NCBI GenBank assembly: GCA_963803875.1
Contig: CAWDOA010000014.1
Coordinates: 48,625 to 112,624, forward strand
Direction of reading: 5' to 3'
DNA: 64,000 nt
Source of the DNA: an uncultured Acidimicrobiales bacterium
Lineage (GTDB): Bacteria > Actinomycetota > Acidimicrobiia > Acidimicrobiales > SZUA-35
The notes beneath the pieces are model-generated. The model had not been told where the DNA came from. It did not search any database and saw only the letters and a program-made list of their open reading frames with translations. This document shows, one piece after another, positions 4,502-55,451 of the stretch. The position numbers and the translations under genes are program-made. Positions within the stretch are counted from its first letter, which is position 1. Every line of letters begins with the position of its first letter.

Positions 4502-5854
4502 CTAATCGCCCACGCCGAACACGGCCCGGGTCTCCGGCAGACCCTGCGGGCGGGCAAACAGAACAACATGATCGCCGGCACGCAACACCGTTGCTCCCCG
4601 CACGATCTGGGCATCTCCATCGGAGGGGACAACCGCCCCGAGCAGCACGTCGGTCGGGAGTTTGAGCTCTGAGACAACGGCCCCGTCGGCCTTGGAACCT
4701 GCGGCCACCTCGATCGCGTCGACTTCGGCGTCACTCTCGAGGAACGTGGCCACGCTTGAGGTATTGCCACGGATGTGGCGCAGCACCGCATTGGCCGACG
4801 CCGTTCGGGGGCTCAGCGCAGCATCGATGCCAAACCTGGCGACGAGGGGAAGCAGTTCGAGGCGGTGCAGCACCGCGACCGTAAACGATGCGCCCTCAGC
4901 GGCGGCATAGGCGCACGCCAGCACGTTCGAGGCGTCCTCACCGGTGGCGGCTACGACCGCATCCATTCTGCCGATGGCCTCTTCAGCGAGGAGTTCGGTG
5001 TCGGTGACATCGCCCCTGATCACGATCGTTCTCGGCAGTTGTTGAGCCAGCTCCTGAGCCCGACGCATGTCCCGTTCCAGCAAGACCACTTCGGCGCCCT
5101 CCGCCTCCAAGTGTCCCGCCAGTCGCGACCCGATCGCTCCGCCTCCCAACACCATGATCCGTCGAGCGAGCGCACCGGGCACCCCGAGATGATCCATGAT
5201 CGCTTTCCTGGACGACTCGTGGCACAACACTCGCACGTGATCGCCAGGCAGAATCATCTGACTGCCGTGCGGGATTACCGTCGTACCGCCGCGAGTGATG
5301 GCACCGAACAGGAAGTCCAGGTTGCGTCCCAACGAGCCGCCGATGTCAGCGACTGTCTGATGGGCAACATCGGCGCCTTCCCGGACAACGGCACCTATGA
5401 CGACCAGGTCGCCACCCATTCGGTAGACCTCGTCGGCTCCGGTGGCGTGAACGAGCTCGAGAATCTCGTCCGCAGTGTCGGCATCGGGATCGATGACCAG
5501 GTTGGCTCCCACTCTGTCCCGAAGCGACTCGGCAGCAAGCCCTCGAAATGCGGCGTTCTGCAACCGGATCACGGTCGTCTCGACGTTCTGACCGGCCGCA
5601 ACGAGGGAGGCCAAGAGGTTGATCTCGTCTTTTTCGGTGACAGCAGCAACGAAGTCGGCTCTATCGATTCGCGCCTCCATGAGCACGTCCGGGTGCGAGC
5701 CGCTCCCTACGACAACCTGAACATCGAGCCGCTCGCTGACTTCCTCGGCCCTGCCGGGGTTCTGCTCCACGATCGTCACATCATGGTTTTCAGCTGCGAG
5801 GCGTTCTGCCAGATAGAAGCCGATTTCGCCTGCACCCACAATCACAACATGCAC
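4502..5854 (-). CDS. trkA: Trk system potassium uptake protein TrkA (tandem RCK/NAD-binding domains)
   Basis: Two Rossmann motifs (VIVGAGEIG and VLGGGAIGSRLA), each followed by a TrkA_C-like segment. 450 aa. Confidence 0.9.
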   Translation of the reverse strand: MHVVIVGAGEIGFYLAERLAAENHDVTIVEQNPGRAEEVSERLDVQVVVGSGSHPDVLMEARIDRADFVAAVTEKDEINLLASLVAAGQNVETTVIRLQNAAFRGLAAESLRDRVGANLVIDPDADTADEILELVHATGADEVYRMGGDLVVIGAVVREGADVAHQTVADIGGSLGRNLDFLFGAITRGGTTVIPHGSQMILPGDHVRVLCHESSRKAIMDHLGVPGALARRIMVLGGGAIGSRLAGHLEAEGAEVVLLERDMRRAQELAQQLPRTIVIRGDVTDTELLAEEAIGRMDAVVAATGEDASNVLACAYAAAEGASFTVAVLHRLELLPLVARFGIDAALSPRTASANAVLRHIRGNTSSVATFLESDAEVDAIEVAAGSKADGAVVSELKLPTDVLLGAVVPSDGDAQIVRGATVLRAGDHVVLFARPQGLPETRAVFGVGD

Positions 5855-7359: not shown

Positions 7360-8265
7360 GTGAGGAAACGGGCGCTGGAAATCGCCGACCAGATCGAATC
7401 GTCGGCGTGCGAGCTCGGCTGGGTCGTCGGCGAAATGGTGGGTGACGAATCGGCTCTGATGGCCAGATTCGACGTCGGACGCAGCGTCTTCCGGCAGGCG
7501 ATACGGCTCTCGGAACACCTCGGTGTAGCCACAATGCGAAGAGGCCGAACAGGCGGCCTGGTCATCGCCAAACCCAACGCAGACCCCGCCGCTCTGTCCT
7601 TACAGATCGCCTGGTCCAAGCAGCGGGTGCAGATTCGAGCCGTCGAACGGCTCCACACCACCATCGACGACTGGGCGCCGACGGGACCGCCAGGATCGAA
7701 GACGTTCCTCGACATCATTCGTCGCGCACTCCAAGGATTCAACGGCAACCAGCTCACCACGATCGCGGTGGACTCGGTGAAACTGGGCGAACAGATCGCC
7801 CACCACATACTGGACACCCTCATCGAACAGCGATGGAATGGGCCAGATCTGCTTGGCTCGGAAGCCCATTTGATGGAGGTCTACGAAGCGGGACGAGCCT
7901 CGCTTCGCGAAGCCATCCATCTGCTCGAACTGCACGGCGTAGCGGTGATGCAGCGAGGCCCCGGCGGAGGTCTTCTGGTACTTCGGGCGCCGTCTCCGGG
8001 AGCAATTCCACGGTCGATTCGAGCTCAGCTGCGCGCTTCATACCTGTCCGATCCTCAGATCCAAATGTTGATGGAGGAGTTCGTTTCTGCGGTACCTCAG
8101 CACGACGTTCAAGACTCCGGCCCTCGTGTTGCGGAACGGTGCTCGGCAGGTCATCGACTCTCTCCGGCTCATTCCCCAGTAGCTGGCAACGCCGTCGGAT
8201 ACCTCGATGAGGGGGTCGGTCAGGCGACGGGACGCGCTACGATCATCAGGTCTATTCCGGGGTAG
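7360..8265 (+). CDS. GntR-family transcriptional regulator with two tandem winged-HTH domains (3' end uncertain)
   Basis: GTG start. Residues ~1-75 and ~140-215 are both GntR-type wHTH (GDESALMARFDVGRSVFRQAIRLSEHLGVATMRRGRTGG and GSEAHLMEVYEAGRASLREAIHLLELHGVAVMQRGPGGG). Divergent from the P450 gene. The ORF runs 10 nt into tRNA-Asn. Confidence 0.6.
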   Translation: MRKRALEIADQIESSACELGWVVGEMVGDESALMARFDVGRSVFRQAIRLSEHLGVATMRRGRTGGLVIAKPNADPAALSLQIAWSKQRVQIRAVERLHTTIDDWAPTGPPGSKTFLDIIRRALQGFNGNQLTTIAVDSVKLGEQIAHHILDTLIEQRWNGPDLLGSEAHLMEVYEAGRASLREAIHLLELHGVAVMQRGPGGGLLVLRAPSPGAIPRSIRAQLRASYLSDPQIQMLMEEFVSAVPQHDVQDSGPRVAERCSAGHRLSPAHSPVAGNAVGYLDEGVGQATGRATIIRSIPG

Positions 8266-8331
8266 CTCAGTTGGCAGAGCAACCGACTGTTAATCGGTTT
8301 GTCGTGGGTTCGAGCCCCACCCCCGGAGCCA
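8256..8331 (+). tRNA. tRNA-Asn (anticodon GTT), CCA encoded
   Basis: Acceptor TCCGGGG/CCCCGGA, D arm GCTC-AGTTGGCAG-AGC, anticodon loop CT-GTT-AA, T arm GTGGG-TTCGAGC-CCCAC, then G-CCA. Confidence 0.9.
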
Positions 8332-8353
8332 CACCACCCGCTGATTCAACCCT

Positions 8354-8427
8354 GGGGCGGTAGCTCAGTTGGTTAGAGCACGGCACTCATAATGCTTTTG
8401 TCGTGGGTTCAAGTCCCACTCGCCCCA
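8354..8427 (+). tRNA. tRNA with CAT anticodon (elongator Met, or Ile2 if lysidine-modified)
   Basis: Acceptor GGGGCGG/TCGCCCC, anticodon loop CT-CAT-AA, T arm GTGGG-TTCAAGT-CCCAC. The paired G1-C72 argues against an initiator. No encoded CCA. Confidence 0.85.
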
Positions 8428-8435
8428 CCGTGATA

Positions 8436-8795
8436 CCCCTGCAGGGGGCTCGTTGCCACGAAGGTTCCGAGCATCGTTGCGCCAGAGCCGAGCCATGTCC
8501 TCACTCGCTGTCTCGCTCGTCCCTCGCTTTGCCAGCTCGCTTCATGGCTCGTTCTGCCTCCACTCGCTACGGGTCTGCCTCGCCGTGCGAATCTCAAATC
8601 GCTGCGGAAGCTGAACCGGTGTTCGCCCGTTGTCGAGACGCCGGTTCCCGGAGGTTGAACGCGTGAAGCGAAACGGCGCAATGCGACGAAGGAGCGAGCC
8701 CGCTGGAGGCGAGCAGCACGTGCGTCGAACGGCCGAGGAGGCGAGAGCACGGAACCTCCGAGCTTGCGCAACGGGCACGACCTGCAGGCGCAGGA
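8436..8795. repeat. ~360-bp imperfect palindromic intergenic element (copy A of a local repeat family)
   Basis: Left arm motifs: GGGGGCTCGTTGCCACGAAGG (8444-8464), TCCTCACTCGCTG (8498-8510), CTCGCTTCATGGC (8536-8548), CTCCACTCGCTACGGG (8558-8573). Right arm carries reverse-complement-like versions (CGTGAAGCGA 8662-8671, CGAACGGCCGAGGAGG 8726-8741, CGGAACC). Both ends contain CTGCAGG. The same ordered motifs occur at 15285-15665. Confidence 0.6.
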
Positions 8796-8797
8796 AC

Positions 8798-10018
8798 TCA
8801 GTCCAGATAGCCGCGCAGTTTGTCGGAACGGAGCGGGTGGCGCAGTTTGGCCAGGGTTTTGTTTTCGATCTGCCGGATCCGTTCTCTGGTCACCCCGAAC
8901 TCCTTGCCCACTTCTTCCAAGGTGCGGGGCTGGCCGTCGTCGATCCCGAAACGGAGCTTCACCACCTCGGCTTCCCGCTCGCTCAACTCCTTCATCACTT
9001 CGCTGACCGCAATCGCCAACATGTGACGGGCCGCTACATCTACCGGTGCCGCGCCTTTGTCGGGGATGAAGTCGGCCATCGAGCTGTCATCCTCGTCGCC
9101 GACCGGGGTGTCGAGGCTGAATGCTTCCTGCCGGGCGATGCGCAGGATCTCTTCCACCCGTTCCGGCGTCATGTCGACGTCCTTGGCGATCTCGGCCATG
9201 GTCGGGTCACGTTCGAGCCGCTGTCCAAGCGATCGCTGACTGCGGATGACCCGATTCATCGACTCCACCATGTGAACCGGTACCCGGATCGTGCGTGACT
9301 GGTCGGCGATCGCACGGGTGATCGACTGACGGATCCACCAGGTGGCGTAGGTGGAGAATTTGAAACCGCGGGCGTAGTCGAACTTCTGCACCGCCCGCAT
9401 GAGCCCGAGGTTTCCCTCTTGGATCAGATCGAGCATGGCGACGCCGCGGCCGGTGTACCGCTTTGCGATCGACACGACCAGACGCAGATTGGCAGCTGTG
9501 AGATCATTCCGGGCCAGCTCCCCGTCGTGAACCGCCTGTCGAATCCGGCGCCGCTCTTCAGGATCGAGGTTGTCCCACTCGCCTGACATCACCAGGTCGG
9601 TCTGCCGATCGGAATCTTTGGCACCTTGCTCGATACGTTTCGCCAGTTCCACCTCCTCATCGGCAGCGAGCAACGGAACCCGGCCGATCTCCTTGAGGTA
9701 CATCCGAACCGGGTCACCCGAACCAGATGCTTTGGCAACGGCTTGAGTAGCGATGACAGCAGAATCAGGTCGCCGGCGGCGACGCGACGTTGCTTGAGAG
9801 TCGTGGTCATCTGACTCTTCGATCACGTCATGGTCGAAGGGCACGTGGTTCTCGGCCAGGAACCTTTCCACCTCCTGAACCAACTGAGGGGTGAGGTCGA
9901 TGTTGTGCATTACTTCGATCACGTCGTCGGGCGTGAGGGTTCGGCCAGCCTTGGCGCGCAGCAGCAGCCGATCGCGGTGTTCTTCGCTGAACAGCGGTTG
10001 TTGGGGAACTGCGTGCAT
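8798..10018 (-). CDS. rpoD: principal RNA polymerase sigma-70 factor (RpoD/SigA-type)
   Basis: Region 2 [14 protein letters not shown] and region 4.2 [31 protein letters not shown]. Start set to ATG 10018 (MHAVPQQ...), 2 nt after the dnaG stop. The longer ORF to 10234 overlaps dnaG. Confidence 0.9.
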
Positions 10019-14543: not shown

Positions 14544-15280
14544 TAGTGGCCACCCAGAACGCGGCGCCGGAAGCTACGGTGCCGCGCGTGATCGATCCTC
14601 AACGCGTGCCGCAGCATGTCGCATGTGTCATGGACGGCAACGGACGGTGGGCCAACGAACGAGGTCTCGTCCGCACCGAAGGTCACGCCGCTGGCGAACA
14701 GGCCCTCGTCGACGCCGTCGATGCATCCCTCGAACTCGGGATTCAGTGGCTCACCGTTTATGCCTTCAGCACCGAGAACTGGCGGCGCCCAGTCTCCGAA
14801 GTGCGCTACCTCATGAACTTCAACGAACAGCTTCTGCTGCGTCGGAGAGATGAGCTGAACGACAAGGGCGTACGAATCAAGTTCGTCGGTCGCCGAGACT
14901 GGCGAATCCCCAGGCGGCTGCTCAAACGCATCGAAGAAACCGAAGCTCTCACGGCCCACAACGACACCCTCACGCTCAGCATCGCATTCAACTACGGAAG
15001 TCGAGCCGAACTCGTCGATGCCGTCAGGCAACTGAACGCCGACGGGGTCGAACCCACCGAAGAAGCCATCTCGGCTCGAATGTACGACCCGTCCATGCCC
15101 GACGTCGATCTCTGGGTTCGAACCTCAGGTGAGCACCGCATCTCGAACTTCTTGCTATGGCAATCCGCCTACGCCGAGTTCGTGTTCGTCGATGCCTTCT
15201 GGCCCGACTTCGGACGAACCGAGATGTTCAATGCCGTCGCAGAATTCCAGCACCGCAACCGCCGCTTCGGCGGGCTGTAA
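14510..15280 (+). CDS. uppS: isoprenyl transferase / undecaprenyl-diphosphate synthase
   Basis: Motifs VMDGNGRWA, YAFSTENWRRP, RTSGEHRISNFLLWQSAYAEF. An alternative GTG start at 14546 lies right after the upstream stop. Confidence 0.9.
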   Translation: MAPDRRLAEGLVVATQNAAPEATVPRVIDPQRVPQHVACVMDGNGRWANERGLVRTEGHAAGEQALVDAVDASLELGIQWLTVYAFSTENWRRPVSEVRYLMNFNEQLLLRRRDELNDKGVRIKFVGRRDWRIPRRLLKRIEETEALTAHNDTLTLSIAFNYGSRAELVDAVRQLNADGVEPTEEAISARMYDPSMPDVDLWVRTSGEHRISNFLLWQSAYAEFVFVDAFWPDFGRTEMFNAVAEFQHRNRRFGGL

Positions 15281-15284
15281 CTCC

Positions 15285-15665
15285 ACCTCCGGTGGGGGCC
15301 GTTCAGGCGCCACGGAGGCTTGAGCCTGCGGCCTCAAAGAACTCGGGCCGTCTAGCCCGCTGCGCTGGATCTCTCGCTAGCTGCGTAGTTCGTGTTCTCA
15401 CTCGCTGACGCTCGCTTCACGAACCACTCCGCCTCGCTACAGGGAAACCGCGCAGGAATCAGAAACAGCCCGGCCTCCTCGCACCGAGGGGTGAAACCTC
15501 TGCGAAGAGAGCCCGCACCGCCGCTTCAGGCTGACGGGCGAGCCAGAGGGAGGGCGGCCTAGGGTGGGGAGCCATGAAGCGAGGCGGCGGCAATAACGAT
15601 CACAAGCCGCACGTAACGAGCCGCCGAGTGAGAACATGGCTCCCCGCCCAGGCCGAACGGAGACA
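15285..15665. repeat. ~380-bp imperfect palindromic intergenic element (copy B of the family seen at 8436-8795)
   Basis: Same ordered motifs as copy A: GGGGGCCGTTCAGGCGCCACGGAGG (15294-15318), TTCTCACTCGCTG (15395-15407), CTCGCTTCACG (15411-15421), CTCCGCCTCGCTACAGGG (15427-15444). Right arm has the complements GCCATGAAGCGAG (15571-15583), CGAGTGAGAAC (15625-15635) and GGCCGAACGG (15651-15660). Confidence 0.6.
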
Positions 15666-15758
15666 GAGCCACATCGGATCCCACGCCCCCAGCACAACTC
15701 ACGGCCACCGGCTAAAGGCTCCGTGCCGTTTGAGCGGGCCCCCTGCAGGGGTGTAACC

Positions 15759-16580
15759 GTGCCGTTGTATCGGGATCAGGGGGTTGTGCTTCGCACCCAC
15801 AAGCTCGGCGAAGCCGACCGGATCATCACGCTCTTCACCGCCGGTCACGGACGAATCCGGGCGGTAGCGAAGGGAATCCGACGTACCAAGTCTCGATTCG
15901 GGGCTCGGCTCGAGCCGATGTCGTGGGTGAACGGTCAATTCTACGAAGGACGAAACCTCGACATCGTGACGCAGGTCGAAACCGCCCATCGATTCGATCA
16001 CTTGCGAAGCGATCCCGAGCGTCTTCATCGAGCGGCGGTGATGCTCGAAGCGGTGGAACACACCACCCAAGAGCGAGGCCCGGACAGAGGGATCTTCAAC
16101 CTGCTCACCGGTGCACTCCGCGAACTCGATCGGACCGGCAATCACAGCGTCCTTCCAGCCTTCGTGGCCAAGTTGCTGATGCTCGAAGGGATCCAGCCTC
16201 AAGTCAACCACTGCGTCCACTGCGGCAAAGAGGATCGAATCGAGGCGATCAACCTTCACCAGGGCGGAGTTCTGTGTCACGAACATCGCTCTGGTCAACC
16301 GATCGGTCCCGGCGTCCGCAGGGCGCTGTCGCTCGTGTTCGCGGGTGAGGTGAGACAAATGCTGGATGAAACGGACCCGGCTGTCGCCGACGAAATCGAG
16401 ATCCTTGCAATTCAGCTACTGGAGCAACACCTCGAGCGACGACTGAAATCAGCGAGCTGTCTTCCGAACCGCTATCTAGGCGTCAGACTCCCCGCTCCCT
16501 ACGGATCTGGCGTTTCGGTTCCCACCCACGTGGGTGGGCTGAACGTGACGTCAGGAAGCGTGGGTGCAGTCGTGGCCTGA
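15759..16580 (+). CDS. recO: DNA repair protein RecO
   Basis: GTG start at 15759 (VPLYRDQGVVLRTHKLGEADRI...), OB-fold N-terminus and zinc motif CVHCG...LCHEH. The upstream part of the ORF lies inside the repeat element. Confidence 0.85.
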   Translation: MPLYRDQGVVLRTHKLGEADRIITLFTAGHGRIRAVAKGIRRTKSRFGARLEPMSWVNGQFYEGRNLDIVTQVETAHRFDHLRSDPERLHRAAVMLEAVEHTTQERGPDRGIFNLLTGALRELDRTGNHSVLPAFVAKLLMLEGIQPQVNHCVHCGKEDRIEAINLHQGGVLCHEHRSGQPIGPGVRRALSLVFAGEVRQMLDETDPAVADEIEILAIQLLEQHLERRLKSASCLPNRYLGVRLPAPYGSGVSVPTHVGGLNVTSGSVGAVVA

Positions 16581-55374: not shown

Positions 55375-55407
55375 AAGCCTCCGTGGCGCCCGAACGGCCC
55401 CCGGAGG
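55375..55407. repeat. short hairpin motif related to the terminal motif of the 15.3-kb and 8.4-kb elements
   Basis: AAGCCTCCGTGGCGCCCGAACGGCCCCCGGAGG. Its first 28 nt match the reverse complement of 15294-15321 (AAGCCTCCGTGGCGCCTGAACGGCCCCC) at 27 of 28 positions. Forms a CCTCCG...CGGAGG stem. Confidence 0.55.
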
Positions 55408-55451
55408 GACAGCACAGCCCCTGCCTGATGAGGCGCACTCGGTCTACCCAA

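Follow-up and report, generated by a model that had tools for sequence, protein, structure and literature searches.

The window analysed here, a stretch of 64,000 nt in all, comes from a metagenome-assembled genome (MAG) of the Acidimicrobiia (Acidimicrobiales, 62% GC). Those relatives that carry names are Acidimicrobiia/Acidimicrobiales MAGs too, and their loci are referred to below by L numbers. From left to right, a P450 gene (minus strand), a GntR-like gene (plus) and the plus-strand genes for tRNA-Asn and tRNA-Met lead up to a repeat structure that we call element A, which is followed by rpoD, dnaG and glyS (all minus) and an RDD-like gene. Onward lie uppS (plus, ending at 15280), a second structure of the same kind, element B, and recO (plus, GTG start at 15759). 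The spacer between tRNA-Met and the rpoD stop codon (8798–8800), in which element A lies, measures 368 nt (Table 1). The GntR-like ORF was called mechanically (7360–8265, plus) and overlaps tRNA-Asn by 10 nt; its product has 301 aa here and 292–298 aa in relatives, and the true end or start of the gene may differ.

Table 1. Features of elements A and B, of the genes that border element A, and of site C (positions in the window)
Feature	Position	Strand	Basis or remark
tRNA-Asn	8256–8331	+	Upstream of tRNA-Met; ARAGORN, Rfam tRNA
tRNA-Met (CAT)	8354–8429	+	ARAGORN, Rfam tRNA; left unit of A directly after 3' end
Element A, left unit	8430–8573	+ (as tRNA-Met)	Unit profile match 8430–8569, E = 1.5e-32
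Head of left unit, CCCCTGCAGGGGGCTCGTTGCCACGAAGGTTCCGAGC	8436–8472	+	Derived order-wide core with ~5-nt loop deletion
H2 of left unit	8484–8557	+	Per-sequence folds, RNAalifold, pair counts; CM R1 85.4 bits
Central joint between units	8574–8641	.	Small hairpin; repeat search and fold
Element A, right unit, inverted	8642–8793	− (as rpoD)	Unit profile match 8793–8642, E = 2.9e-18
Degenerate H2 of right unit	8654–8729	−	CM R1 20.1 bits, E = 0.055, non-training sequence
Head of right unit	8747–8790	−	Reverse complement is CGCCTGCAGGTCGTGCCCGTTGCGCAAGCTCGGAGGTTCCGTGC
rpoD, primary sigma factor, 406 aa	8798–10018	−	NCBIfam; exact 406-aa match P0001
Element B, left unit	15277–15441	+	Canonical head 15286–15323; H2 15381–15432
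Element B, right unit, inverted	15557–15757	−	Head 15713–15753; H2 15562–15648
Site C, solo canonical core	55375–55412	−	Between two minus-strand genes

A preliminary description, made from the letters alone, had called the region between the tRNA genes and rpoD an imperfect palindrome. Global alignment of 8436–8788 (353 bp) with its own reverse complement bears this out: the score was 55, compared with −3.9 ± 10.4 for dinucleotide shuffles (z = 5.7, reached by 0/300 shuffles), and six control segments put through the same test gave z values from −1.2 to 2.1. Identity between the arms is 77% when aligned columns are counted and 68% over arm length. At the two ends are inverted heads of ~40 nt that share ~80% identity over aligned positions, with two indels. 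The short motif that had been noticed at both ends is CCTGCAGG, found at 8438–8445 and at 8781–8788, the latter copy 9 nt from the rpoD stop. The 64 kb contain just three copies of this 8-mer, all of them at element ends; the third marks the right end of element B. The hexamer CTCGCT, after which the motifs of the region had been named, is clustered (five in 8504–8563 and four in 15373–15433, out of 30 in the window), and the ORFs within elements A and B had no Pfam match, in line with the earlier view that none of them is convincing.

Closer reading resolves the palindrome into two units that face each other. The distance from gene end to unit start is 6 nt on the left (tRNA-Met) and 9 nt on the right (rpoD stop), so each of the two convergent genes has its own co-oriented unit. 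On the left, a head is followed by a hairpin, termed H2, with outer stem CGAGCCATG/CATGGCTCG, internal loop UCCUCACUC/UCGCUU and a perfect 9-nt inverted repeat (8489–8497/8543–8551), and then by a tail block CCTCCACTCGCTACGGG at 8557–8573. A small hairpin (GAACCGGTGT/ACGCCGGTTC) pairs 8613–8622 with 8638–8647 at the joint. Blocks CGCCTGCAG, GTGCCCGTTGC and CGGAGGTTCCG of the right head recur in the L052 and L149 heads, and most of them also in L150, where the ortholog of the right unit sits directly past the rpoD stop. The H2 of that ortholog is intact (81.7 bits, as one of the six sequences from which the model was built).

The ordered motif set of element A had been reported to recur at 15285–15665. 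The recurrence stands but the extent does not, as element B runs from 15277 to 15757. Ordered blocks shared by the two elements are CTCACTCGCTG (8500 in A, 15397 in B), GCTCGCTTCA (8535 and 15410) and CTCGCTAC (8563 and 15433). Alignment of A with B exceeded shuffled controls, as the preliminary description would have it, in the reverse orientation (z = 6.9, 0/300) and to a lesser degree in the direct one (z = 2.2, 13/300). Two palindromic dimers of a single unit would be expected to behave in this way, with A closer to B when B is reverse-complemented. The left unit of B follows the uppS stop codon (TAA, 15278–15280), and the right unit ends 1 nt before the recO start.

Several smaller observations concern the uppS–recO spacer. 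A direct TGTAAC repeat flanks element B (15276–15281 and 15752–15757), its left copy spanning the uppS stop and its right copy ending 1 nt before the recO GTG; the corresponding sequences in L052 are TGTAAT and TGTAGT. The pair could be a 6-bp target-site duplication left by insertion into a 2-nt uppS–recO junction, or a coincidence. A perfect palindrome, CCCCTGCAGGGG, lies at 15740–15751, 8 nt upstream of the recO start, with a like arrangement in L052. Its GGGG could be a ribosome-binding site, in which case the repeat may supply the recO translation signal. The spacer is occupied in the window, L052 and L053 and lacks the element in L002 (98-nt spacer), whose uppS–recO spacer (4560–4660) holds a tandem duplication of 43 nt, which takes in the region of the recO start codon and may be real or an assembly artefact.

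A third site in the window, C, holds a solo core that matches the left end of element B at 27 of 28 nt. It lies ~30 nt past one minus-strand stop and ~125 nt ahead of the next gene start; that gene is MKIAVLGVGRIG oxidoreductase-like. The spacer around it is kept in L028 (82% over 168 nt), and L060 has four tandem 39-nt copies.

The core is ~35 nt long, (T)GTCCCTCCGGGGGCCGTTCARRCGCCACGGAGGCT, is followed by lineage-specific tails, and is present in dozens of Acidimicrobiales MAGs. Searching one genome per species with a degenerate core pattern yielded 71 loci. The 23-nt form of the core is almost exclusive to Acidimicrobiales/Acidimicrobiia MAGs, and a single MAG of ~4.5 Mb contains at least 34 exact copies of it at 14 loci. 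A core HMM counted 94 copies at 49 loci; neighbouring copies were direct in 41 cases and inverted in two, and arrays had periods of 39 nt and about 85–150 nt.

The canonical-core HMM alone misses the heads of element A, and homology therefore rests on the intermediates L053, L052, L149 and L150. Read from the sequences, the chain leads from the canonical core to L053, whose head CTAATTCCCTTCCAGGGGGCCGTT-----GCCACGGAGGTTCCG is the canonical core with a 5-nt deletion, then to L052, L149 and L150, and from these to element A; these last three and both ends of element A form one subtype in which CCTGCAG replaces CCTCCGG. A profile of the whole unit, made from six arms, recovers both arms of element A and the L053 copies, and it matched the left unit of L149, on which it had not been trained, with E = 3e-11. 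Homologous units are found in four other genomes (L052, L053, L149 and L150). The left arm of element A (8430–8573) and L052 3530–3672 share 83% identity over 144 nt. The L052 unit sits at a non-orthologous place, the uppS–recO locus of another species (EBRS4.bin13), which upholds the original reading of an interspersed element and not a unique spacer. Flanking coding DNA is 81%–87% identical among the window, L052 and L053, and across these three genomes the spacers contain conserved islands within otherwise diverged sequence. We conclude that element A is very probably an inverted pair of non-coding units of ~150 nt, convergent and tail to tail, and a member of a gene-terminus repeat family specific to the Acidimicrobiales.

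A linked double change at core positions 29 and 37 (GCC-ACGGA-GGC to GGC-ACGGA-GCC) is seen in several independent copies (L049, L061, L068, 15714–15737 of the window and the right arm of L052) and points to either a mini-hairpin of 3 bp within the core or a symmetric site for a protein, in competition with the CCUCCG/CGGAGG stem. The latter stem (−15.2 kcal/mol) is no better than in shuffles (z = −0.7); its variants are mixed (U-G, C-A, C-U), and its non-Watson–Crick pairs have no clear strand bias. In a sub-family (L003, L005 and L048), each unit contains a GC hairpin and then GATTTTGG, resembling a classical intrinsic terminator, and the same pattern is found in the flanks of L009, L010, L041 and L068. 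A tRNA-derived origin of the core is rejected, since its alignment to 24 tRNAs, in either orientation, was no better than that of shuffles.

The second module, H2, is the seat of the CTCGCT-type motifs of the preliminary description, which correspond to the strands of its conserved internal loop, UUCUCACUC/UCGCUU. Around this loop the outer stems vary: to the stem of element A given above correspond GAACGAGTCATG/CATGACTCGTTC in L052, GTTCGTG/CACGAAC in the left unit of B, CACG/CGTG in L053 and GGGGAGCCATG/CATGGCTCCCC in the right unit of B. RNAalifold on six H2 copies from four genomes gave 15 pairs; double changes of a compensatory kind occur in 10 of these (0/500 shuffles) and amount to few independent events because some of the copies are positional orthologs. 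Pairing reached 90.5%, compared with 74% in shuffles (0/500) and 32%–48% in slid controls, and the covariation score was 0.51 versus 0.24 in shuffles (0/500). The covariance model found eight sites in 486 kb, namely the six training copies, L149 2710–2761 (E = 1e-3) and the degenerate right arm of element A. We are confident that the unit has this bipartite make-up, with a head that is kin to the order-wide core of ~35 nt and has hairpin potential, and an H2 with covarying stems and a conserved loop.

The whole of element A folds with an energy marginally below that of shuffles (z = −1.7 and −2.1, with 3–4/100 shuffles as good), which gives the folding check proposed in the preliminary description a borderline outcome; for element B the whole-region value is z = −3.2. 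The same description had allowed for a repeat that acts as a long-hairpin RNA or a bidirectional terminator. Its repeat nature is confirmed, and the long conserved hairpin and the U-tract terminator are not. A conserved long-hairpin RNA of 360 nt is rejected because the arms differ more from each other than the left arm differs from the copy in another species, and because the orthologous L149 spacer is non-palindromic (z about 1). The conserved structure is instead the local H2 within each arm, and the 360-bp palindrome is a side effect of two diverged copies lying face to face. Scans of 8200–9000 on both strands found no hairpin with a U-tract, and no sigma-70 promoter was found at element A. 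At Rfam 15 gathering thresholds the window had matches to tRNAs only and 17 core-carrying loci had no match on the repeats, while relaxed thresholds gave only noise on the repeats of L052 and L053; the suggested comparison with Rfam thus yielded no family for the element. GC skew is −0.15 to −0.29 in both units of A and in the left unit of B (a mild excess of C over G of the Rho-utilisation type), ∼0 in the right unit of B, and +0.02 on average downstream of canonical cores.

The position of the cores relative to genes is strongly biased. Of the 48 core clusters that could be classified, with crude GC3-based gene calls plus ARAGORN and with core copies ascertained by an exact pattern, 40 point the same way as the gene upstream (binomial p = 3e-6), and 30 of these 40 begin within 72 nt of its end. 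All nine clusters that follow a tRNA gene (Met, Pro, Gly, Ser, Ala, Leu) are co-oriented with it. The seat of element A after tRNA genes, to which attention had been drawn, is accordingly a trait of the family. As had also been noted, no integrase is at hand: neither an integrase nor a transposase was found in the window between 5.9 and 19.4 kb. The 5' flank of the unit (GCTCTAA / CTGA; CTAA) often provides the upstream stop codon, as for uppS in the window, L052 and L053. There are exceptions to the polarity: the right unit of B faces the recO start, and in L036 one plus-strand unit runs antisense to the genes on either side. Within 8-kb loci around the copies, no transposase or other protein family recurs apart from orthologous housekeeping genes.

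We compared the spacer between tRNA-Met and rpoD among relatives (Table 2). Its content ranges from none of the units to long arrays, and relatives with a spacer of 13–25 nt show that the element is dispensable there.

Table 2. The tRNA-Met to rpoD spacer in relatives
Locus	RpoD identity to window	Spacer
L152	83%	13 nt
L151	87%	23 nt
L001	95% (closest relative)	25 nt
L148	87%	58 nt, one degenerate core
L002	84% (syntenic contig)	~150 nt, two direct cores
L037	–	About 430 nt, about eight direct cores
L149	92%	385 nt, A-type unit first, non-palindromic
L150	92%	rpoD-side unit with intact H2; contig end inside unit
L147	92%	Contig end exactly at rpoD stop

In L001 the spacer consists of the left flank, a single CCTACAGG and the right flank. 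This state is explained more simply by deletion between 8-mers, since L149 and L150 (92% RpoD identity) carry units at the site and CCTGCAG belongs to the head elsewhere; alternatively, an insertion may have duplicated an 8-bp target. Contigs of three relatives end at or near these repeats (L147 at the rpoD stop, L150 inside the rpoD-side unit and L001 inside tRNA-Met), and the repeats appear to fragment metagenome assemblies.

The best-surviving alternative, which we nonetheless hold to be rather unlikely, treats element A as one MITE- or REPIN-like transposable element, non-autonomous and mobilised by a transposase in trans, which entered CCTGCAGG by tRNA-Met as a single palindromic unit and has no host function. 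It would account for a non-coding element of 353 bp with ~40-nt terminal inverted repeats, for the 8-mer at both ends where L001 has one copy at an otherwise empty 25-nt site, for like arms at unlinked loci, and for presence/absence and copy-number variation among relatives; the direct TGTAAC around element B and the contig breaks of relatives also fit. However, CCTGCAG forms part of the head in other units too (L052, L149, L150 and the right unit of B). The flanking CCTGCAGG is part of the head of each unit, without a demonstrable target-site duplication; CCTGCAG being palindromic, such a duplication is indistinguishable from the tip of an inverted repeat. The L001 state, as argued above, is more simply a deletion. 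Insertion alone would not lead one to expect the strong orientation bias relative to genes, the prevalence of direct over inverted neighbours is unlike MITEs, and no transposase recurs near the copies. Viral contigs gave no core matches and metagenome scans gave no genuine ones: a scan with GCTCGCTTCA..CTCGCTACRGGG had no matches, and the 73 matches to CGTTGC..CGRAGGTTCCGWGC were all chance-like by blastn.

We therefore favour a gene-terminus repeat pair with a role as 3' trailer and with turnover by duplication and deletion, an account that, taken as a whole, we consider somewhat better than even. The orientation bias and the tight spacing to gene ends point to a role at the RNA level. The units may be transcribed together with the preceding genes, as 3' trailers. 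The hairpins might then mark or protect RNA 3' ends, through termination, through processing or as a barrier to exonucleases, and a protein might recognise the conserved loop bases, by analogy with what has been proposed for TRIT; we put forward each of these three steps tentatively. The family would grow by tandem duplication, with occasional dispersal or gene conversion, and shrink as DNA between short repeats (for instance the two CCTGCAGG copies) is deleted. Turnover of this kind would leave the same spacer very differently occupied in close relatives. An essential role is spoken against by the close relatives that lack the element.

A bolder proposal, in our judgement unlikely, is that head and H2 make up a new class of structured 3'-trailer RNA module, in use throughout the Acidimicrobiales, whose conserved loop bases a dedicated protein reads so as to terminate, process or stabilise transcripts, above all tRNA precursors, or else are the ends of a REPIN-like mobile element served by a non-RAYT enzyme. 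It is improbable that the units or H2 are a dedicated structured RNA (an sRNA, or a cis-regulatory 3'UTR or leader) that regulates rpoD, recO or the tRNA operon through a bound protein. Covarying stems around a conserved loop are the usual signature of functional RNA, conserved islands persist in the diverged spacers of three genomes, and the right unit of B adjoins the recO start with its GGGG 8 nt upstream. Against this, there is no promoter-like site and no Rfam match, the element is missing from the same loci in relatives, its neighbours are unrelated genes, and the H2 in the right arm of A is degenerate. That the region is a chance or low-complexity spacer, or the att-remnant scar of a tRNA-targeting integrative element, is very hard to credit: the DNA is GC-rich, lies by tRNA genes and folds only marginally below shuffles, but the palindrome and A-to-B statistics, the homologous units in four other genomes, the lack of an integrase, the presence of units after protein-coding genes as well, and a motif that neither overlaps nor resembles tRNA all speak against it.

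The core repeat family and H2 are previously undescribed, being absent from Rfam and from the searchable literature, in which we found no report of such repeats in Acidimicrobiia; they resemble REP, TRIT and MITE elements more than they do a system of a new kind. Acidimicrobiia are abundant, mostly uncultured Actinomycetota of soil, marine and wastewater environments whose non-coding content is essentially uncharted. An order-wide core of ~35 nt with gene-end polarity and a genus-level, covarying H2 are now defined in them. High-GC Actinobacteria have few canonical terminators, and a gene-terminus element conserved in sequence would be a concrete candidate for 3'-end formation. The repeats also provide copy-number markers between close strains.

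Compared with a canonical intrinsic terminator, element A differs in having no U-tract after a GC hairpin (8200–9000). The MIRU-type repeats of mycobacteria are tandem intergenic arrays of 40–150-bp repeats with variable copy number. By description, the canonical-core arrays in L037, L012 and L006 are alike; for MIRUs, neither polar hairpins at gene termini nor inverted dimers have been reported. Element A resembles bacterial MITEs (Correia/NEMIS, RUP and MITEAba12) in size (100–500 bp), non-coding nature, terminal inverted repeats, whole-length fold-back potential, presence/absence between strains and the capacity to supply stop codons or expression signals. It differs in that no target-site duplication is demonstrable, that the sequences analysed contain no parent IS with matching ends, and that its arms, at 77% identity, have diverged from a unit found solo and in direct arrays as well. 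The repeats that flank the elements are 8 bp long at A (CCTGCAGG, with one copy in L001) and 6 bp long at B (TGTAAC).

REP elements are recognised by proteins and are linked to mRNA 3'-end stabilisation and to termination. There is a likeness to REP, BIME and REPIN elements: these too are short extragenic hairpin repeats that are found singly, in clusters and as inverted doublets forming a larger hairpin, in many copies per genome, at gene ends and between convergent genes. The REPIN concept treats the inverted doublet as the replicating unit (PMC3116915), and here inverted doublets are seen in A, B and L052. The core family differs in that its copies are mostly in direct tandem arrays (41 direct neighbours versus two inverted) and strongly polar to the upstream gene. 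A REP unit is an imperfect palindrome of 20–40 nt; the ~35-nt core can form the CCUCCG/CGGAGG stem described above, with a stability that does not exceed that of shuffles. REPs have a conserved terminal GTAG or CGTC (PMC3733652); the core consensus and the A-type heads carry neither of these tetranucleotides at either end. No gene for RAYT, the Y1 transposase associated with REPs, was seen (window 5.9–19.4 kb and the 8-kb loci around copies). The units are moreover four to five times longer than REPs (~150 nt), modular, with a head and a lineage-specific tail, and hosted by Acidimicrobiia, whereas REPs are found mainly in Proteobacteria.

TRIT, the 'Tuberculosis Rho-independent terminator', is a motif reported as restricted to Mycobacterium, strongly conserved in sequence and structure, with 147 copies in M. 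tuberculosis (PMC3152330). It is tied to gene termini, often over the stop codon, and forms a single palindromic, mostly bidirectional hairpin; a binding factor was proposed because of its sequence conservation (PMC3152330). The core described here is polar, arranged in tandem, provided with variable tails and strongly enriched after tRNAs, which sets it apart from TRIT. In terms of the published description, both are lineage-restricted actinobacterial elements that sit at gene termini and overlap stop codons, and the positioning is as in TRIT, with 30 out of 40 co-oriented clusters within 72 nt of the gene they follow and the two units of element A at 6 and 9 nt.
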